A model generated the notes under the pieces. It was given only the letters and a program-made list of their open reading frames with translations. It searched no databases and was not told the origin of the DNA. Of a DNA stretch of 64,000 nucleotides, positions 25,537 through 58,578 are shown in pieces (the first letter of the stretch is position 1; each line of letters begins with the position of its first letter). The DNA lies in assembly GCA_964398525.1 (NCBI GenBank), contig CAYNMS010000003.1:547-64546 (forward strand), read 5' to 3'. Made by a program: the position numbers and the translations under genes. The stretch is from an uncultured Pseudomonadales bacterium. GTDB taxonomy: Bacteria; Patescibacteriota; Microgenomatia; UBA1400; CAYNFZ01.

Positions 25537-26481
25537 CTAGCTATTCTTATTTCCCGAATGAAATCTGTCATGAACTTTTTTCAGTTGAGGATTGGTCACA
25601 TGAGTGTACACTTGGGTTGTGGCTACATTTTTGTGCCCCAGCATCTCCTGAACTTCTCTCAAACCAGCCCCTTGCTGCAAAAGATCAGTGGCAAACGAGT
25701 GTCTCAGCCCATGAGGGGTTATCTCTACTGGCAGTTTAGCCAGTCGCCGATACTTTTTCACAATCCGCTGCACACTTCTGGCCGTCAGTCTCATATCCTC
25801 ACCCTTAGGCAGCCTAGGAGTCTTGTTTTTGGCATAACGAATAAATGCTGGCTGCCAATCATCCTCTCTTTCCTGAAAATAGCGTCGGAGCCATCCTGCC
25901 GCACGATCTGACAAAAAAACCACTCTGGCTCTGCCTCCCTTGCCAATAATTCCAAACTCTCTTGTCTCAAAATTTATTTTGTCACGATTCAGTTTAACCA
26001 ACTCCGACACTCTCAGTCCCGTTGAAAACAACACCTCTAAGATTGTCCTGTCCCTCAAGCCCGCTTCCTCATCAACATTGGGGGAATTAAGCAATGATTC
26101 CACTTGTTTACGGTTCAAAAACGACAATGACCGGCTCTCAGTTTTTGGCAAATCAATTTTCTCAGGTGCCAACACCTCCACATCATTTTTAGTTAACCAT
26201 TTTAAAAAAGATCTGATTGCGATCACATGATAGCTTTGAGTCACTTTGGCTAAATTTCCATTATATTCATCCTTATATCTGGACAGGTACAGTCTATACC
26301 CTCTGAGAGTATTCAAATCCAACTCTTCAATTTTTTTGTCAGAATCTTCTTTGTGAAACCACTCAGCAAATCTTTTCAAATAATGATGATAATTTCTAAT
26401 CGTTAGCCTACTGGCACTTTTCTCCACCTCCATATAATCCAAAAAATCTAAAATTAACTGATCTAACGATTTATTGTTCAT
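25537..26481 (-). CDS. tyrosine site-specific recombinase (XerC/XerD family)
   Basis: HGLRHSFATDLLQQGAGLREVQEMLGHKNVATTQVYTHV catalytic C-terminus; N-terminal SAM-like domain. Confidence 0.8.
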   Translation of the reverse strand: MNNKSLDQLILDFLDYMEVEKSASRLTIRNYHHYLKRFAEWFHKEDSDKKIEELDLNTLRGYRLYLSRYKDEYNGNLAKVTQSYHVIAIRSFLKWLTKNDVEVLAPEKIDLPKTESRSLSFLNRKQVESLLNSPNVDEEAGLRDRTILEVLFSTGLRVSELVKLNRDKINFETREFGIIGKGGRARVVFLSDRAAGWLRRYFQEREDDWQPAFIRYAKNKTPRLPKGEDMRLTARSVQRIVKKYRRLAKLPVEITPHGLRHSFATDLLQQGAGLREVQEMLGHKNVATTQVYTHVTNPQLKKVHDRFHSGNKNS

Positions 26482-26675
26482 TATTTCCTATCATTCCTTT
26501 CCAAATTATAGGTTGTTGGCACTTAATAAACCAAACTGATAACCAAGTGTACCTCTGGTCCTACCCGATATATCAATCAAATTAATTGCTAAATTATGAG
26601 TAATTTTGATACATTATGCTGTATTAGATATGTAGTAATTTAATCCGTGTCCCATAACTGAAGCTGACAATCGGG

Positions 26676-26712
26676 TAGGGGAGTGTAAAAAATATTTTAC
26701 TCTGTTAATCGA
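26676..26712 (+). repeat. degenerate direct repeat unit, TAGGGGAGT family, copy 1
   Basis: TAGGGGAGTGTAAAAAATATTTTACTCTGTTAATC. Confidence 0.5.
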
Positions 26713-26761
26713 TTGGTCTTTCAACTTTTCTAGCATAAACTTATTGGGTTACACAATCAAG

Positions 26762-26776
26762 ATTGTGCGACATAAG
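26762..26776 (+). repeat. 15-bp motif ATTGTGCGACATAAG (left copy of inverted pair)
   Basis: perfect reverse complement found at 28217-28231; near-copy at 27654-27668. Confidence 0.6.
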
Positions 26777-26897
26777 ATAAATAATTAAAAAAAGACCCTA
26801 AAAACAGATCAAAAAACTTTGCTTAATATCGATAGCAATTTAATCACCCTTACATTAACTACTTTCCTTTATCACAAAAAAACTTAAAAACTTAGAG

Positions 26898-26951
26898 TGG
26901 GGGAGTCAAACTAATTTTTTAACCCTGTCAGCCATCTAATTGAAATTAACC
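26898..26951 (+). repeat. degenerate direct repeat unit copy 2 (ends TTGAAATTAACC)
   Basis: TGGGGGAGTCAAACTAATTTTTTAACCCTGTCAGCCATCTAATTGAAATTAACC. Confidence 0.5.
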
Positions 26952-27000
26952 TTCACAATTATAAATTGAATTCAGATCAATACTTCATAAATCTTACCAA

Positions 27001-27040
27001 TAGGGGAGTAGAATTAATTATTTTACCCTTATCAATCCCC
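27001..27040 (+). repeat. degenerate direct repeat unit copy 3
   Basis: TAGGGGAGTAGAATTAATTATTTTACCCTTATCAATCC. Confidence 0.5.
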
Positions 27041-27491
27041 CGCCCAAGGAAACAATCGGGGGAGCGGTTCAGGTAATTTATGTCACTTACCATCCTCGCT
27101 CTGGCATCTCTACAACTTAACCGAAATCAACCCAAATATAAATATCTTCCTTGTTTAAATATCGTCAGAAATAAAAATTAATCATTATAAAAATAATATT
27201 TTAATCGTTAGAGATGAATAAAATTATTCTTATCACCAACTTGCCAGCTCAGTCGTCGTCTTTTGGTAGTTAATCATATTCCTGACTCAATTGGACGTCA
27301 AAATAGATATTCGCCCCTCTTCCAGGCTAAACAATTAGATACTACCAGATGTGACGCTTTCTAATGCCCCTAAAACGGTTTTTTTGGTCTCTCCCTATAC
27401 AGTTGGTCCACCAAATTAGCCTTTCATATCCGCTAAAACACTTTATAAATCTTTTTTTATTTAAATTTAAATAGTATCTTCGGGTTTATAT

Positions 27492-27510
27492 ACAAATTCA
27501 TAAAATTCAA
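27492..27510 (+). repeat. 19-bp direct repeat ACAAATTCATAAAATTCAA (second copy at 27721-27739)
   Basis: two identical copies 229 bp apart bracketing the third ATTGTGCG(T)CATAA site. Confidence 0.55.
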
Positions 27511-27525
27511 TTTCTTGCTTGTCGG

Positions 27526-27572
27526 TGGGGAAGTAAAAAAAATAAAATTAGGTTTAATTATTGAAATTAACC
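27526..27572 (+). repeat. degenerate direct repeat unit copy 4 (ends TTGAAATTAACC)
   Basis: TGGGGAAGTAAAAAAAATAAAATTAGGTTTAATTATTGAAATTAACC. Confidence 0.4.
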
Positions 27573-28216
27573 ATTTAAATATTTTGTGAAATTTTAAAAA
27601 ACGAAATAAATAGCACTTCTCCATAAACCTTGATTATGTGTCGCAAAAGATACATTGTGCGTCATAAACAATATACCTCTTTTCTACCCTACGATGGTTA
27701 ATTGGGGACAAATACTAGCAACAAATTCATAAAATTCAAAATTGATTGAATCTCTTTACTTTTCAAGATTTGTGCTTCAGCAAATTCACCACTTCTCCGG
27801 GACCAATAACTAAAATCATTTAAGCTCCATCCTCTCATCGATTGTTTCGGGTTTCTTACTTTCACAACCTTTCCCATACACATTTATGTAAGTTTTCCAC
27901 ACCATCACCCTCTCAAACTATATCATTTACTCAATAAATCTCACGTTGCCAATAAACAAATAACTATATCATTATGTATCACTAGACCTAGTTTTGGCAC
28001 CCCTACTCCCCTTTTGCCAGTAGCTTGTGAAAATTATTATAGGATTGTGTGAAAACTAATTGTTATAGGCTGTTTTCTTTTCCACTCCTCTACTTTCCCT
28101 TACCTCCCATTTTTTTCCTAAACTCCCCTGTCTTTATATTTCAACAAACTAAACCATCTATGAAAAATTCTTTTCTTTTAATACTCATTGTTCCTTCCAC
28201 CCCTTTACTCTTTTAC

Positions 28217-28231
28217 CTTATGTCGCACAAT
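28217..28231 (-). repeat. inverted copy CTTATGTCGCACAAT
   Basis: exact reverse complement of 26762-26776; flanks extend to about 18/19 matches. Confidence 0.6.
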
Positions 28232-28297
28232 ATCCATACTGCTCTACTCCAAGAATGACTAGTTAAAGGCCAGTTTTGCCTAATGAAATTCTAGGAT

Positions 28298-29071
28298 TTA
28301 CTTCCACTCAGTCAGTATCATCATCACCAAAAGTACAAACACCCCTACCCCCGCGTATTCCTTTAGCGTATTTTTAAACAATCTCTCTTGTAAATGATGT
28401 TGAAGTATCCCCAGTAGAACATACATGCCTGTCACCAAAAAGATGGAAGCTATCCATACTGTCACTGGCCAAAATGAAATTGCCAAAGCCATTTCGCTCA
28501 ACACAAAGGCCACCACTGCCGAATACATAATTACTTGCTTTGACAAAAATGGCTCCAGCTTGACCGACCACAAACCATTCAAGACCACTAAAAACGATAC
28601 TCCAAACACCATCACAGCGTTATAAAAAAACGGTAGTTTAAACGAATATATCGTGTTGTAAAAAAACAAACTTGTGACCAATGCCATCATAAAGCCTACC
28701 GCATGAGCCGCCCTCAAGAGTTGGATCGTGCGAATTGCCGCCACTGAATATATGTTGCCTGTCAAATACAATGCATACATCCCCAACCCAAATAAAAACA
28801 AAATTACTACCCGTGACAACCAAGCCTCCGGTAATAGAAAATAAAAAAGCGCCACACTTACAGCATAAAGACCAGGAAAAGGTACGATTACCAGCCATTC
28901 AATACCTTTCAAGTCTTCAAACAACGCCCAGGCTGACACAAAAAAAGAAGCTACAAACAATCCAATAATTGCCAAATATCTCCAGGGAAATTCTACCGTT
29001 ACCAGCTGAGTTGACAATAACCCTAATGATAAAAGTAGCGATGCCAAGACAAACTTTTGGCGTTTACTCAT
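28298..29071 (-). CDS. polytopic integral membrane protein, unknown function
   Basis: 257 aa, about 7 hydrophobic helices. Confidence 0.55.
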   Translation of the reverse strand: MSKRQKFVLASLLLSLGLLSTQLVTVEFPWRYLAIIGLFVASFFVSAWALFEDLKGIEWLVIVPFPGLYAVSVALFYFLLPEAWLSRVVILFLFGLGMYALYLTGNIYSVAAIRTIQLLRAAHAVGFMMALVTSLFFYNTIYSFKLPFFYNAVMVFGVSFLVVLNGLWSVKLEPFLSKQVIMYSAVVAFVLSEMALAISFWPVTVWIASIFLVTGMYVLLGILQHHLQERLFKNTLKEYAGVGVFVLLVMMILTEWK

Positions 29072-29077
29072 TTGCCA

Positions 29078-29620
29078 TTAACGAGGTAAATTAGTAAACA
29101 CTGCTTCAACATCTTCGTGGTCATCCAGTTTTTCGATCAACTTTTCCACTTGTCCCTTTGTTGAATCATCAACCGGAACCTCTATTTTTACATCGTAACC
29201 TTCTCCGTTCCTCTCAAACATAAACGCTACCGATCCCGGACCACCCAAAGATCCTCCAGACTTTTCAAATAAACCTTTAATTTCAGCCGCTGAGCGGTTG
29301 CGGTTATCAGTCAGAACCTTCACCATCATTCCTACTCCACCTGGTCCATAGCCTTCATATAAAATTTCTTCAACTTGTCCCCCACCCCCCTTGCCCAAAC
29401 CTTTATCAATCGCCTTTTGCACGTTTGCCTTTGGCATGTTTACTTCTCTGGCTTTTTCCAACACCATTCTCAGTCTCGGATTTTGATTTACGTCTCCACT
29501 CCCACCTTCCTTCACTGCCACTGATATCATTTTACTGATAAGTGAAAAGGCTTTACCTCTTTTGGCATCTTCTGCTGCTTTTTTGTGTTTAATCGTTGCC
29601 CATTTACTGTGACCGCTCAT
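29078..29620 (-). CDS. YebC/PmpR-family DNA-binding regulator (compact, 180 aa)
   Basis: MSGHSKWATIKHKKAAEDAKRGKAF N-terminus, YEGYGPGG. Confidence 0.85.
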   Translation of the reverse strand: MSGHSKWATIKHKKAAEDAKRGKAFSLISKMISVAVKEGGSGDVNQNPRLRMVLEKAREVNMPKANVQKAIDKGLGKGGGGQVEEILYEGYGPGGVGMMVKVLTDNRNRSAAEIKGLFEKSGGSLGGPGSVAFMFERNGEGYDVKIEVPVDDSTKGQVEKLIEKLDDHEDVEAVFTNLPR

Positions 29621-40711: not shown

Positions 40712-41217
40712 CACCAACCCTCCTAGAGCCACACCAACACCAACAACTCAGAAACCTCAGACTCTTAAGTCTGAAATTAGACCCAGACGCTTTCTTATCC
40801 ACTTACGAGTATGAATCCCAGTACCCCGAGCACTATTTTCGTCAAAAAATTTACCAAAGCCTTCAAGCCCCATGCTATGGCTTCTATGGAATTTTTCAGC
40901 CAGACTTAATTGCCACCGCCCAACTTTCTCCCATGTATCTTCAAAAACAAAAGCACTTAGCCAAGATTTACGAACTCTATGTTCATCCCGACTTTCGCCA
41001 TCAGGGACTCGCAAAAAAACTCCTCAACTATCTAATCAAAAAAGCCAGACTCGATCCTCAACTTGAGGCAATCCACCTAAGTGTTGTTTCTACCAACAAA
41101 CCTGCTATTTCCCTTTACACCTCTCTTGGTTTTCAACATCTAGTTACCCTACCCGATGTAATCAAACAAGCAAATAATCAATATGTGGGTAAGGCATATT
41201 ACTATTTACCTCTTTAA
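40708..41217 (+). CDS. GNAT-family N-acetyltransferase
   Basis: VHPDFRHQGLAKKLLNY acetyl-CoA binding motif. Confidence 0.8.
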   Translation: MTPTLLEPHQHQQLRNLRLLSLKLDPDAFLSTYEYESQYPEHYFRQKIYQSLQAPCYGFYGIFQPDLIATAQLSPMYLQKQKHLAKIYELYVHPDFRHQGLAKKLLNYLIKKARLDPQLEAIHLSVVSTNKPAISLYTSLGFQHLVTLPDVIKQANNQYVGKAYYYLPL

Positions 41218-41270
41218 GTCAATGATTATTATCAATTTTATTTTAAGCGATTATGCTAACATAGTTAACT

Positions 41271-41567
41271 ATGCAAAAATTTCCTGACAAAAAAGACCAA
41301 CAACTAATTAAGGCCTTTTCTCTGCTTAAAAACGAGAAAGAAATTCAAAGTTTTCTTCGCGACCTTTTCACTCTCGCCGAACTCAAAGAAGCCTCCAATC
41401 GGTTTCATATCGCCACTCTGCTCTGGCAAGGCGGTATGTCTTACATAGAAATTGCCAAGGAATGCGGTACCTCAACCACCACCGTCACTCGCGTCAACGA
41501 ATGGCTATTCAAACGTGGCGGTAACGGCTATCTTAATGTTCTCAAACGCCTCTATCCCCAAAGCTAA
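41271..41567 (+). CDS. TrpR-like protein, YerC/YecD family
   Basis: 98 aa, IEIAKECGTSTTTVTRVNEW HTH. Confidence 0.55.
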   Translation: MQKFPDKKDQQLIKAFSLLKNEKEIQSFLRDLFTLAELKEASNRFHIATLLWQGGMSYIEIAKECGTSTTTVTRVNEWLFKRGGNGYLNVLKRLYPQS

Positions 41568-41586
41568 ATCAAACTAATCCTAAGCA

Positions 41587-41614
41587 TTGACACGCTGTTA
41601 TTTACTGCTATAAT
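41587..41614 (+). promoter_or_regulatory. near-consensus sigma70 promoter TTGACA-16-TATAAT
   Basis: TTGACA 41587-41592, TATAAT 41609-41614. Confidence 0.5.
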
Positions 41615-41639
41615 CATGCCATCTTACTAACACACTAAA

Positions 41640-41702
41640 ATGTATTTAACCAACATTATTCAGTCAAATCTTCATCACCACCTCCAATCTCGGAGGTTGT
41701 AA
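41640..41702 (+). CDS. candidate leader peptide MYLTNIIQSNLHHHLQSRRL
   Basis: 20-codon ORF with three consecutive His codons (CAT CAC CAC, 41673-41681) overlapping hairpin segment 1. Confidence 0.35.
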   Translation: MYLTNIIQSNLHHHLQSRRL

Positions 41703-41736
41703 TTTTAGCGATTTTTTATTTTTGTTTTGACTTACC

Positions 41737-41768
41737 AACCTCCGACACCTCGGAGGTTTTTTGTGTTT
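41737..41768 (+). terminator. intrinsic terminator / attenuator hairpin
   Basis: AACCTCCGA-CACC-TCGGAGGTT then TTTTGTGTTT; 24 nt before the operon start codon. Confidence 0.6.
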
Positions 41769-41791
41769 ATTTAACAATCACCATACTTAAT

Positions 41792-42556
41792 ATGACTTAT
41801 TCAATTTCTATATTGCGACCAGCTGGAAACGATACTGCTTTAGTTCAAACCAAGCCGGCCAATAAACAATTCAAATCACGTCTAAATCGTTCAATCATGA
41901 GTTTATTTCCTCAGGTTGAACAGGTTGGTTTTTATTACCAAGCTCAAGATAAATACTATTTGGAAATGGCTGGTGATGAATTTTGTGGAAACGCTGCACG
42001 AAGTGCCACTTTTCTTTTTCTCAAAGGAAACCCTGGTTCACTTACTCTCACTTTTCCCAATCTAAATCTCACCCTCAAAACAGGTATTAAAAAACTCAAC
42101 ACCGCTTGGACACAAATACCATTTGACACCTCCCAAGCAATTTATAACCAAAAAGAATATCAAGTTGCCAATATTTATGGTATTAAACAAGTTCTAGTAC
42201 CTCTGACATCACCCAAGCAGGATTTCAAAACCAAAGCCAAAACTATTTTATCCCAACTAAATTTTCTTCAAACACTTCCCGCCTCTGGTGTGATTTTTTA
42301 TCGACTCTCAGTTCAAGCAGCAGAAATAGTTCCCGTCATCTGGGTGCGCGACATTCAAACCTTCTTTGTTGAGACAGCTTGCGCTTCAGGTTCAGCGGCT
42401 TTAGGTCTTATGTTGTCCAATCAAACTCCTACAATTTTTTCCTTTCCAGTAAAACAACCTAGTCAACAGTACCTTTACGTCTCCTGCAAAACCCAAAAGT
42501 CACTTAGTATTGATGGTCCAATCCAATTTATTACTTCTCAATCTTTAACTTTCTAA
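41792..42556 (+). CDS. DapF-fold (diaminopimelate epimerase-like) PLP-independent epimerase/racemase
   Basis: PAGNDTALV (cf. GLGNDF), EFCGNAARS (cf. CGNGARC), ETACASGSAAL (cf. ACGSGACA); both catalytic Cys positions conserved. Confidence 0.55.
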   Translation: MTYSISILRPAGNDTALVQTKPANKQFKSRLNRSIMSLFPQVEQVGFYYQAQDKYYLEMAGDEFCGNAARSATFLFLKGNPGSLTLTFPNLNLTLKTGIKKLNTAWTQIPFDTSQAIYNQKEYQVANIYGIKQVLVPLTSPKQDFKTKAKTILSQLNFLQTLPASGVIFYRLSVQAAEIVPVIWVRDIQTFFVETACASGSAALGLMLSNQTPTIFSFPVKQPSQQYLYVSCKTQKSLSIDGPIQFITSQSLTF

Positions 42557-55826: not shown

Positions 55827-56807
55827 TTAATAAATCAAGTTAAATATGTATCCCAAAAGCATTATTCCCACAAAAGTGATACCAAAAAACAGTGCTAATA
55901 ACGGCCAGTGCATCACTTTTTTAAGTATCATAGCTTGAGGAACAGAAATCGTTACAATAGCCGTCATAAAAGCCAGAGCCGTGCCCATTGGCACACCTTT
56001 ACCAACCAATGCCTCCATCACTGGAATCACACTAACTGAATTAGCATACAAAGGCGACCCGAGCCCTGTTGCCAAGGGTACACTCCACCACGATCTATCG
56101 GACAAATATCTTTCTACCAATCCAGCCGGGACAAAACCGTGAATCAAAGCCCCTATTCCTACTCCCAATAGTACAAAAGGAAAAACCTCTTTGGTAATTA
56201 ACCATGCGTCTTTCCAAAAATACTTTATTAATTCTCTAAATGGCAGGCTTGCTCCTCCGTTCTCCTTTTCAACTTCTCGTCTGGACTTAAACTTCAGAAG
56301 TTCGGACTTTACATCTTCCTCCACGCCAAGTCTTTGAACCAACAAGCCTCCTAAAATTGCAACCCCAATACCTATCAAGTTATACAAAACCATTACTCTC
56401 ATCCCAAACATCGCCGGAAATAAATATAACGACGATTCATTCACCAAAGGCGAACTAATCAAGAACGCAAAAGTTACTCCAAGTGGAATTCCCGCTCCCA
56501 AAAAACCAATAAATAACGGGATTGAAGAACATGAACAAAACGGAGTTATCACTCCTAGAGCCGCAGCAAATAGATAGTCCAATCCAAACCATCTCCGTTT
56601 AGTCAGCACTTCCCGTACTTTTTCCATTGGAAAATAGTACCGGGTTATTGCCATCAAATAATTTATTATTATCAGGAGGATGCCTATCTTTATGGTGTCA
56701 TAAATAAAAAAGTTTATAGCACTCCCCAGATAGGATTCATTCCCAAGTCCCAACCATCCAAAAGTGACAGTGTCAGCAACGACCTCAACTGGTCTGAATA
56801 CGTCCAT
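55827..56807 (-). CDS. DUF318 / ArsP-like permease
   Basis: VITPFCSCSSIPLF signature. Confidence 0.7.
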   Translation of the reverse strand: MDVFRPVEVVADTVTFGWLGLGNESYLGSAINFFIYDTIKIGILLIIINYLMAITRYYFPMEKVREVLTKRRWFGLDYLFAAALGVITPFCSCSSIPLFIGFLGAGIPLGVTFAFLISSPLVNESSLYLFPAMFGMRVMVLYNLIGIGVAILGGLLVQRLGVEEDVKSELLKFKSRREVEKENGGASLPFRELIKYFWKDAWLITKEVFPFVLLGVGIGALIHGFVPAGLVERYLSDRSWWSVPLATGLGSPLYANSVSVIPVMEALVGKGVPMGTALAFMTAIVTISVPQAMILKKVMHWPLLALFFGITFVGIMLLGYIFNLIY

Positions 56808-56808
56808 A

Positions 56809-57051
56809 TTAGTTCTTAGCTGCCTTTAATAGGCTTTTAACTTTTCCTATATCTGGTACAAATCCTGTCATTACCGGTTTTCCATCAATTGCCAATACCG
56901 GACTGCTCATTACTCCCATTTCAATAATTTTTGAAACATCAGTTATGTACTCAACCTCTTCTCCCAAATTAAGTTCATTCACAGCTTTCTGTGTCAATTC
57001 ATAAATTTTTTTGCAGGTAGGACAACCAGATCCTAATACTTGGATTTTCAT
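56809..57051 (-). CDS. thioredoxin-fold redox-active disulfide protein 2-like
   Basis: MKIQVLGSGCPTCKK, 80 aa; start overlaps arsR stop (ATGA). Confidence 0.7.
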   Translation of the reverse strand: MKIQVLGSGCPTCKKIYELTQKAVNELNLGEEVEYITDVSKIIEMGVMSSPVLAIDGKPVMTGFVPDIGKVKSLLKAAKN

Positions 57052-57382
57052 ATTTGTGTTTCTTTACCCGGAAGTTTAAACAATAAATTTGTAATGAATT
57101 CCCCTTCACTTGTTAGTGAGTAATACACTCTTAAGCCTCTTTTTTCATCCGTGACAACTCCGGCATTCTTAAGATCTTTAAGGTGGTGCGAAATAAGGCT
57201 TTGTGACATTTCCACATGCTCTCTCATCTCATGTACACAATGCTCCCCTTTTCTTTTCTAAGTATGCACAAAAGTTTTAGTCGACTTTCTTCGGCAACTA
57301 TTTTTAATAAACTTGCCAAACTCACCACCTGACTAGCTTCTGCGCTAGACGAATTACAACAACTATATGAACCCATATTCAT
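57048..57382 (-). pseudogene. ArsR/SmtB-family regulator interrupted by a 1-nt frameshift in a C4 run
   Basis: N-frame ...LKIVAEESRLKLLCILRKEK, then -1 shift at 57245-57248, continuing GEHCVHEMREHVEMSQSLISHHLKDLKNAGVV...RVYYSLT. Confidence 0.55.
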
Positions 57383-57474
57383 ATATTAAGTGAACCCGTC
57401 TTACTTTACAAGTCAGAAAAACCCATTAGTAAAGTCTAGGCAACCCACTCTTTCCCATTTATCTCGTCCACCAA

Positions 57475-58578
57475 TTAACCATTGAATTCCTCTAGCCTCT
57501 CCAGCGCCTGAATCATATTCTTTCTTCCAAACCCCACTCTAAAGTTATTTCCCTCATATCCATATTCAGTCGCAGGTAGCAACATCACACCTTTAGATTC
57601 AACCAGATCTAAACAAAAATCTTCTACCTTTATATCTTCATGTAGTTTTACAAAGCCTATTGTCCCAGCCTTTGGTTTCACCCAAGAAAACTTTTGTGAT
57701 TTTGATAAAAAATCGTCCAAAATTTGTAGATTCTCACTAATAAAATTTAAATTTCTCTCTACAATTTTTTCCTTACTCCTCAAAGCCATCAAAGCCAAAA
57801 CTTCACTTGGTGCACTACTGCATATTGTCGTGTAATCCTTAAACTCCATCATCTTCTTAAAAAGTGCTTTATCTCGAGTAACTATCCAACCAATTCTCAA
57901 ACCAGCCAAAGCAAAAGTTTTTGACATTCCAAATAAAGACACTGCCCTTTCATATGTATCACTTGCAGAAATTAATCGATCTTTGGGTTGATACTCCAGG
58001 AATCGGTACATCTCGTCAGAAAACACATAAATATCTTTGCTTTTTGCCAATTCAATTATCTGTTCCAACTCTTCATGTGCCAACATAGCCCCGGTGGGGT
58101 TGTGAGGAAAATTAATAACCAACAACTTAGTGTTGGCTTTAATCAGATCCTTTAGTTTTTCTATATCAAATTTCCACCCCTTTTCTTCCTCAGGAATCCA
58201 CCTAGCCACTTCACACCCGATCGATTCGGCCAATTGATACAAAGATTGATAACCTGGATAAGTCACAATCACATGATCTCCTTTCTCCAGAATTGTGTTC
58301 ATCGCAATAAAAATTCCTTCTTCAGGCACCACCACCAACACCTCATCCGCAGCAATTTGACTATATAGTTTTGTCACCTCTTCTCTTAGTTTTGGAAGAC
58401 CTTGAGACTCTGTGTAACCAAGCCACAATTCATCCCACGAACCTCTTGTTTCATCATCAGCCAGATCAAGCAATTCTTTTAGCGTCAAGGGTTCACAATC
58501 CGACGCACTCAATAAATAAGGTGCTTTAAACTCATATTTGGCGAAATATCTCTCTAGCCGAAATGGCTTAATCTTCAT
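57475..58578 (-). CDS. class I/II PLP-dependent aminotransferase
   Basis: SKTFALAGLRIGW (PLP-Lys). Confidence 0.8.
   Translation of the reverse strand: MKIKPFRLERYFAKYEFKAPYLLSASDCEPLTLKELLDLADDETRGSWDELWLGYTESQGLPKLREEVTKLYSQIAADEVLVVVPEEGIFIAMNTILEKGDHVIVTYPGYQSLYQLAESIGCEVARWIPEEEKGWKFDIEKLKDLIKANTKLLVINFPHNPTGAMLAHEELEQIIELAKSKDIYVFSDEMYRFLEYQPKDRLISASDTYERAVSLFGMSKTFALAGLRIGWIVTRDKALFKKMMEFKDYTTICSSAPSEVLALMALRSKEKIVERNLNFISENLQILDDFLSKSQKFSWVKPKAGTIGFVKLHEDIKVEDFCLDLVESKGVMLLPATEYGYEGNNFRVGFGRKNMIQALERLEEFNG

Follow-up and report, generated by a model that had tools for sequence, protein, structure and literature searches.

A conserved non-coding region beside a Xer recombinase gene is the probable dif region of the Patescibacteria chromosome

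Patescibacteria (Candidate Phyla Radiation) form a very large and almost uncultured bacterial branch with tiny genomes. The recombination site dif usually lies at the GC-skew switch of a chromosome, i.e. at the replication terminus, and its arms in Escherichia coli read GGTGCGCATAA and TTATGTTAAAT. Here, we analyzed a 64-kb stretch of DNA from a member of this branch (contig CAYNMS010000003.1, positions 547 to 64,546; hereafter the window) and concentrated on an AT-rich island free of open reading frames (ORFs) at window positions 26482-28297, to which no strand is assigned. The island lies between the gene of a Xer-family tyrosine recombinase and the gene of a DUF5656 membrane protein, and represents the window's copy of a non-coding region conserved among Patescibacteria. 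We found no paper describing this locus, a dif site of Patescibacteria, their polar words or DUF5656.

Several described systems offer themselves for comparison. Polar, G-rich octamers that orient the translocase FtsK (FtsK-orienting polar sequences, KOPS) invert precisely at dif (PMC2958812). The single-recombinase systems XerS/difSL and XerH/difH have their dif site near the xer gene and employ near-symmetric arms (PMC5357621). Archaeal XerA/dif has a core of 11-6-11 architecture, forms a xerA/dif module in some lineages and is accompanied by short polar words that peak at dif; moreover, archaeal dif is not always positioned 180 degrees from oriC, and its conserved flanks have been proposed as binding sites for a partner protein (PMC2958812). 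The plasmid resolution sites cer and psi combine a Xer core with flanking accessory DNA, which is non-coding and a few hundred bp long (PMC5357621).

As judged from sequence comparison, the island is probably the dif region of the Patescibacteria chromosome, in which a Xer core site is joined by single-arm operators, polar words that point inwards and conserved accessory DNA. Our comparison set comprised 80 species-representative loci of Patescibacteria (numbered with the prefix L), which were fetched via their Xer protein and whose Xer is 59-66% identical to that of the window. Together with the proteins flanking the island, these loci put the window in Patescibacteria, near Levybacteria and Microgenomates. 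The gene order of a tetratricopeptide-repeat protein gene (on the minus strand), yebC, the DUF5656 gene, an ORF-poor gap and xer recurs in 67 of the 80 loci, and for most of the remaining 13 the upstream sequence is missing. A BLAST comparison of the island with these loci returned one short conserved stretch, which was then extended into a profile by iterated nhmmer searches. With this profile, 66 of the 67 gaps contain exactly one full 28-bp site. Its consensus is TTATGTCGCACAA-TAATAC-TTTT(A/G)CGACATAA, which can also be written ATGTCGCACAA-TAATAC-TTTTRCGACAT, and all 66 sites as well as that of the window share an 11-6-11 architecture of two inverted 11-bp arms around a 6-bp spacer. The core is conserved across the phylum at almost every base: of the 11 arm positions, ten show the palindrome in between 32 and 66 of the 66 sites and eight of these ten do so in at least 57, and 59 of the 66 spacers read TAATAC, TATAAC or TATTAC. 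The sites lie 502-6568 nt upstream of xer (median 1080, 66 loci), and the core starts at a median distance of 706 nt from the DUF5656 stop codon.

In the window, the core occupies positions 27638-27665 and reads ATGACGCACAA-TGTATC-TTTTGCGACAC on the minus strand; it is the only full profile match. Thus, one full site is present in the 64-kb window and one in each locus with its ±10 kb flanks. Neither full nor half sites were found by profile search elsewhere in the window, and the ±10 kb flanks outside the gaps yielded none apart from one marginal match. An earlier note on this DNA, made from its letters alone, had pointed out a perfect 15-bp inverted pair with a third near-copy in between, and this arrangement is indeed present. 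The 15-mer ATTGTGCGACATAAG is exact at 26762-26776 (+) and at 28217-28231 (-), 1.44 kb apart, and recurs with two mismatches at 27654-27668 (+); further matches in the window all carry three mismatches, compared to a chance expectation of 1.6 at up to three mismatches. The near-copy coincides with the core, and the two perfect 15-mers are copies of its left arm only, one direct and one inverted. The suggestion of a Xer/dif-type recombination locus, one of four identities the earlier note had listed, is therefore supported by the phylum-wide 11-6-11 site, the intact xer gene next to it and a polar word that inverts at the site (see below).

Searches for further structure around the core gave little. 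In 20 loci, only scattered short inverted repeats and no large palindrome centered on the core were seen, and a mirror-image base composition about the core was absent except for a T-rich stretch of 200 nt after the site. No full parS site was detected, only half motifs resembling TTTTCACG. A search for Xer-exploiting phages with the core-site pattern returned no match in 2.9 million viral contigs, and a metagenome scan gave five matches, none with xer or DUF5656, in a collection that did not return the usual loci either; two of the three matches with listed ORFs fall inside ORFs and are probably chance matches. One metagenome contig of a different kind, L099 (BNJV01000132.1, 9252-9278), contains a near-consensus core in a very AT-rich, ORF-free gap of 2 kb beside ftsW and murG. 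No xer, DUF5656 or RGGGGAG is found there within 14.8 kb, and the local GC skew changes from plus to minus at the site, although this is one short and noisy example.

The second line of evidence is a polar word. The earlier note had described a family of degenerate direct repeats of 40-55 bp starting with T(A/G)GGGGAGT. As a long repeat this family is weak, with three copies of 74% identity over 23 nt, whereas its head of 7-8 nt is significant: 5 of the 12 matches to RGGGGAGT in the whole 64 kb fall inside the 1.8-kb island. The sequence ATTGAAATTAACC, at the end of repeat-family copies, is present in two exact copies. Because of this repeat head, we tested RGGGGAG as a polar word. All 9 copies up to position 27064 are on the plus strand and all 21 copies from 28006 onwards on the minus strand, so that 30 of 30 point at the core and the switch of orientation (27064-28006) brackets it. 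Six of them lie within the island, where their density is highest, and all six point inwards: four on the plus strand at 26677, 26899, 27002 and 27058 (spanning 26677-27064), the first three being heads of T(A/G)GGGGAGT repeats, and two on the minus strand at 28006 and 28123 (28006-28129), which approach the core from the other side. Furthermore, 18 of the 19 window copies of GGGNAGGG point at the core.

The same polarity is found in the relatives. In the flanks of 63 other loci, with gaps excluded, plus and minus copies of RGGGGAG stand at 112:1 to the left and at 10:133 to the right, and 245 of 256 copies point at the site. When divided by gene orientation, the ratios are 89:1 (genes on plus) and 12:0 (genes on minus) to the left, and 3:28 (genes on plus) and 4:87 (genes on minus) to the right. 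The strand of the word is thus set by the chromosome arm and is independent of gene orientation. An unbiased scan of 7-mers recovered AGGGGAG as the top site-pointing word in all four strata, followed by TAGGGGA, GGGGAGA and GGGGAGT, and two loci (L042 and L050) show the inversion individually. GGAGT and GAGAAGGG, examined as polar words in the same way, gave no clean inversion. An inversion of this kind is the known mark of KOPS at dif, and the repeat heads in the island are therefore local copies of a chromosome-wide word. As an observation in its own right, both RGGGGAG and GGGNAGGG keep to one strand almost without exception on either side of the switch over tens of kb, in the window as well as in the flanks of L019-L098.

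The third line of evidence is the recombinase. The xer gene (25537-26481, minus strand) encodes 314 amino acids and starts at the left edge of the island. Its product consists of a Pfam Phage_integrase domain and a SAM-like N-terminal domain, and alignment with XerD shows that all catalytic residues (R, K, HxxR, H and Y) are present. XerD, XerC and XerA are its best and roughly equal family matches, with scores of 247 (cut-off 330), 246 (335) and 218.1 for XerA_Arch (220, i.e. 2 bits short). Judging by these scores, the protein falls between XerC/D and XerA. The NCBIfam model of XerS gives 124.7 bits against a cut-off of 267, and among structures in the Protein Data Bank (PDB) XerH is matched with E = 4e-13 and XerD with E = 1e-38. 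Chain 14 of PDB entry 9i5v (401 amino acids, labelled 'Ribosome-associated translation inhibitor RaiA') also matches the Xer protein over its full length (E = 8e-27); it looks as if either this label is wrong or the chain is a fusion.

Additional copies of the left arm lie between the core and xer in 44 of the 67 loci, almost all of them in the same orientation. In 20 copies, the arm ends in CAYAAT, TACAAT or CAAAAT, and these six bases are placed 16-18 nt downstream of a TTGACA-like hexamer that agrees in five to six of six positions. Most of these 20 are near the xer start codon, including those of L092, L096, L072, L030 and L026, in which several genes separate the core from xer. From this overlap with the -10 box of a predicted xer promoter (TTGACA-N16-18) in about 20 other species, we infer that the arm copies may be operators through which xer is autoregulated. 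The window has such a left-arm copy, CTTATGTCGCACAAT, at 26762-26776 on the minus strand, in the orientation of the core's left arm and 286 nt upstream of the xer start codon, which makes it a candidate Xer operator. The inverted copy (28217-28231, plus strand) is near the stop codon of the DUF5656 gene; L019, the closest relative, likewise carries an inverted copy.

How such a region might work can be outlined from these elements. Xer would bind both arms of the core and recombine its sister copies, thereby resolving chromosome dimers. The near identity of the arms suggests a single recombinase, and since the two arms are nearly the same, Xer would probably act as a homomer. An FtsK-type translocase would read the RGGGGAG words; given that these are densest in the island and all point inwards, they would guide it to the core. 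Lastly, the extra single-arm copies would act as Xer operators, with xer under its own control. No ftsK gene was identified in the 64-kb window.

Several observations speak against the island being a dif region. The GC skew of the window is negative from end to end (-0.09 to -0.54) and does not change sign at the site, which thus does not follow the common placement of dif at the skew switch. Expressed in locus orientation, the mean skew of the window is +0.37 (genes on plus) and +0.31 (genes on minus) on the DUF5656 side, and +0.30 and +0.26, respectively, on the xer side. The corresponding values of the other loci are +0.125 and +0.057 on the DUF5656 side, and +0.088 and +0.007 on the xer side. 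When balanced for strand by averaging the per-strand means, the skew is +0.34 on the DUF5656 side compared to +0.28 on the xer side in the window, and +0.09 compared to +0.05 in the other loci; it falls by about 0.04-0.06 across the site without inverting, and the xer-side value remains above zero in 84% of the 57 scorable loci. Moreover, the 9 xer-side copies of RGGGGAG are on the C-rich strand, opposite to the compositional bias and to the leading-strand placement of KOPS. The inversion of the polar word and the unchanged skew are not reconciled and remain unexplained. The window core itself departs from the consensus (ATGACGCA...GCGACAC), its arm copy upstream of xer lacks a good -35 hexamer, and most of the conserved flanking boxes described below, including a canonical DnaA box, have no explanation in a dif model. 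Finally, 63 loci share the gene order, and the observations made on them are thus not fully independent. For the same reason, the convergence of gene orientation on the locus (83% of genes on plus to the left, 67% on minus to the right) is weak evidence. The skew of the window is also unusual in strength and uniformity, being mostly about -0.3 regardless of gene strand, and the closest relatives (L020, L022, L025 and L030) share this property at 0.2-0.38.

The core is embedded in a set of conserved boxes, of which the window has recognizable copies of most. On the DUF5656 side, block A, TGATATAGTTTGATA or (A)ATGATATAGTT(TGATA), is present twice in the window, at 27914-27927 and 27960-27973 on the minus strand, and the first copy resembles an extended -10 box (TGnTATAGT). 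Block A is too short for a profile and was therefore counted by pattern search, which found TGATATAGT in 59 of the 67 gaps, often twice and at about -430 from the core. Other boxes on this side are CCTATAAT / TTATAGGAC and AAAACCCGAAT. TTTTCACR boxes, one to three of which lie on the DUF5656 side of the core, were found 88 times compared to about 4 expected; in the window, paired CCTATAA(T)...TTTTCAC boxes at 28028-28073 on the minus strand are shared with the closest relative and with other clades. A DnaA box, TGTGGAWAA, likewise on the DUF5656 side, occurs once per locus at a fixed strand and relative position, giving 59 boxes in 64 loci compared to about 1 expected. The window has a single DnaA-box-like nonamer, TGTGGAAAA (equivalent to TTTTCCACA), at 27893-27901 on the minus strand. 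On the xer side, the boxes are CCCTACTATAGG and the 67-nt block C. Block C is present in 31 loci, in 29 of them 180-420 nt past the core, and the window retains a partial copy (AAAAGCCGWTTTTGRG...TAGCCTGGTAGA) at 27344-27387 on the minus strand. In six loci (L042, L045, L061, L064, L085 and L071) block C is inverted, at about 260-360 nt after the core, a small inversion that arose in evolution within the non-coding region; five of these loci have a TTGATATATCAA palindrome just outside the inverted block. High sequence identity, palindromes such as TTGATATATCAA and the occurrence in either orientation suggest that the flanking boxes (TGATATAGTTTGATA, the DnaA box, TTTTCACR, AAAACCCGAAT and block C) may be accessory or regulatory DNA bound by proteins, and not RNA.

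These boxes also bear on two other readings of the island. A replication origin, or a different replication-control element that depends on DnaA and uses the boxes as iterons, would account for a non-coding, AT-rich and conserved region with repeated TGATATAGTTTGATA and TTTTCACR boxes and with a canonical DnaA box in 59 copies among 64 loci at constant position and strand; in addition, dnaB, gyrB, gyrA and holB lie within 10 kb. We nevertheless hold it to be very improbable, as each locus has one DnaA box and no cluster, the sign of the GC skew is unchanged across the site, the polar words converge on it but would diverge from an origin, and a Pfam scan of the 30 larger window ORFs found neither dnaA nor dnaN. 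The origin iterons that the earlier note had considered are therefore not borne out, and the skew comparison it had proposed as a check, carried out here on the 64-kb window and the loci, places neither an origin nor a terminus at the island. Alternatively, transcription that starts at block A, with its likeness to an extended -10 box, and runs through the palindrome could yield a large or composite non-coding RNA. The ordered conserved blocks over about 800 nt, the fit of TGATATAGT to an extended -10 box and the absence of ORFs in compact genomes agree with this view, yet it is highly unlikely on several grounds. Rfam searches at the gathering threshold (the window and eight related loci) and at E of up to 10 (the island) returned only tRNAs and noise, RNAalifold placed no consensus pair in 28 copies of block C, and the window folds no better than its shuffles (z = +0.94, +0.85 and -0.87). 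No terminator is present in the island and none is conserved downstream of the core, and block C occurs in either orientation. Within the palindrome, position 2 can pair in 62 of 66 sites when read as top-strand RNA but in 42 as bottom-strand RNA, while position 7 is pairable in 33 and 65 sites, respectively. As the two variable positions mismatch on opposite strands, the palindrome fits a protein site better than a hairpin. The pairing tests covered block C and the window's own folds, which leaves room for a small local RNA; tRNA or tmRNA genes were not found in the island. The structured non-coding RNA that the earlier note had offered thus finds no support, the Rfam search it had proposed included.

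Three further explanations start from the palindrome, its arm copies and the neighboring recombinase gene. The palindrome and the arm copies may serve only as transcriptional operators for Xer or another dimeric regulator, without any recombination, and both the overlap of arm copies with predicted xer promoters and the lack of recombination products among 18 near-identical contigs are in line with this. Against this stand the exact 11-6-11 spacing and a spacer conserved in 59 of 66 sites; the single full site per locus is distant from the promoter, the polar word inverts at this site and not at the promoter, and the catalytic residues of Xer are intact, so that operators alone have a very small chance of being the whole answer. 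An invertible or excisable segment, i.e. a phase-variation switch using the inverted 15-mers, is brought to mind by a perfect inverted pair 1.44 kb apart beside a tyrosine recombinase gene and by a contig of a sibling strain (L009) that ends at the edge of the core. This is scarcely credible, because the 15-mers are single arms and not full cores, the contigs that span the segment in other samples all run colinear with the window, and the extra arms of most species are direct only (32 on plus, 2 on minus). The same low standing applies to a decayed mobile element or its att site, another proposal of the earlier note. AT-richness, missing ORFs, repeats and a neighbor of the integrase family would fit; against it, distant species have kept the region together with its gene order, the island shows no sign of pseudogenes and none of the viral contigs mentioned above yielded the site.

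The island stands out within the window as a non-coding region, in agreement with the earlier description of it as AT-rich, devoid of credible ORFs and located directly upstream of the recombinase gene. Its GC content is 0.326 compared to 0.445 in the flanks. No ORF of at least 70 amino acids is present; the longest encode 61 (27698-27883, minus strand) and 69 amino acids (28049-28258, plus strand), and the longest stop-free stretch comprises 80 codons. The island is about 2.7 times larger than the next biggest gap between ORFs of at least 100 amino acids (668 bp, 56807-57475), which is followed by one of 575 bp (41217-41792). These two gaps of about 0.6 kb each are AT-rich as well, with a GC content of 0.36-0.38. 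An exact 19-bp direct repeat noticed earlier, ACAAATTCATAAAATTCAA, was confirmed at 27492-27510 and 27721-27739 on the plus strand, with one copy on each side of the core; it was not seen in the closest relative, L019. A scan for tandem repeats gave nothing meaningful. The neighboring DUF5656 gene (28298-29071, minus strand) shows the tightest linkage of all neighbors to the conserved non-coding region. It is followed by yebC (29078-29620, minus strand), a YebC/TACO1 homolog of 180 amino acids that covers positions 1-140 of profiles with 238-245 positions and apparently has no C-terminal part; the matches of relatives span similar ranges.

Comparison with relatives, which the earlier note had recommended, shows a conserved region and not an ordinary spacer. 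The smallest gap in the 67 loci measures 1205 bp, and the GC content is below that of the flanks in most. Longer gaps contain extra genes; on the xer side these keep a distance of at least 230 nt from the core, and otherwise they separate the core from the DUF5656 gene. As these genes are placed away from the core, a constant non-coding unit of about 0.9-1 kb remains, and 1 kb of conserved non-coding boxes is unexpected in genomes this compact. Near-identical strains from other samples have the same gap of 1816 bp at 99.8-100% identity and are colinear with the window. They differ from it by 0.55-2.2 positions per kb in the island compared to 0.13-0.64 per kb outside, and block A, the arm copies and the core site are free of such differences. 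Position 27840 is a private variant of the window, as all four sibling contigs compared (L001, L002, L003 and L011) differ from it there, and L001 additionally differs at 26755-26756, adjoining an arm copy. At the other end, the sibling contigs with the window's first gene, tyrS (L104-L109), all stop about 540-700 nt upstream of it, past a D-Tyr-tRNA deacylase gene, which suggests that a repeat or a variable junction lies shortly before the window, some 600 nt left of its start. Records titled 'candidate division TM6' (L042, CP011212.1), 'Bathyarchaeia archaeon' and 'Limnocylindrales' (L040 and L081) carry a typical Patescibacteria locus; L042, L040 and L081 are probably mis-binned or mis-labelled.

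If the island is a dif region, the mismatch between polar word and skew might have a biological cause. It is conceivable, though rather doubtful, that the focus of Xer site and polar words is uncoupled in Patescibacteria from the replication terminus as defined by GC skew. Dimer resolution and arm polarity would then, with the same reservation, center on a conserved non-coding hub, about 1 kb long and bounded by the DUF5656 gene and xer, made up of the dif core, the DnaA box and several other boxes. Uncoupling of this kind would mean that replication is strongly asymmetric or otherwise unusual, that skew is not set by replication, or that FtsK-guided resolution takes place away from the meeting point of the forks. 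A real mismatch would bear on how the termination of replication is coupled with chromosome segregation. For practical purposes, the locus offers a candidate dif consensus, a candidate KOPS-type word (RGGGGAG) and a marker of the arm junction by which assemblies may be checked and oriented.

With respect to the described systems, the locus resembles XerCD/dif and FtsK-KOPS of E. coli in its 28-bp core of 11-6-11 architecture, a Xer protein with the full catalytic set, a G-rich word that inverts at the site and the polarity of GGGNAGGG. Unlike in E. coli, the arms are nearly identical and unrelated in sequence to GGTGCGCATAA / TTATGTTAAAT, and the site is linked to the xer gene and lies away from the GC-skew switch. 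Genetic linkage to xer and nearly symmetric arms are shared with XerS/difSL and XerH/difH. However, the protein scores far below the XerS cut-off, matches XerH weakly and is shorter (314 compared to about 355 amino acids), the spacer has 6 bp instead of 11, and the site is positioned 0.5-6.6 kb from xer within a conserved non-coding region of about 1 kb. The cer and psi sites are comparable only by analogy, namely in the role of their flanks, as the present locus is chromosomal and has conserved boxes on both sides of the core. Archaeal XerA/dif is similar in core architecture, and the Xer protein of the window scores 2 bits below the XerA cut-off (218.1 compared to 220); what sets the Patescibacteria locus apart from it are a bacterial host, a different site sequence and a G-rich heptamer of KOPS type instead of a tetramer.

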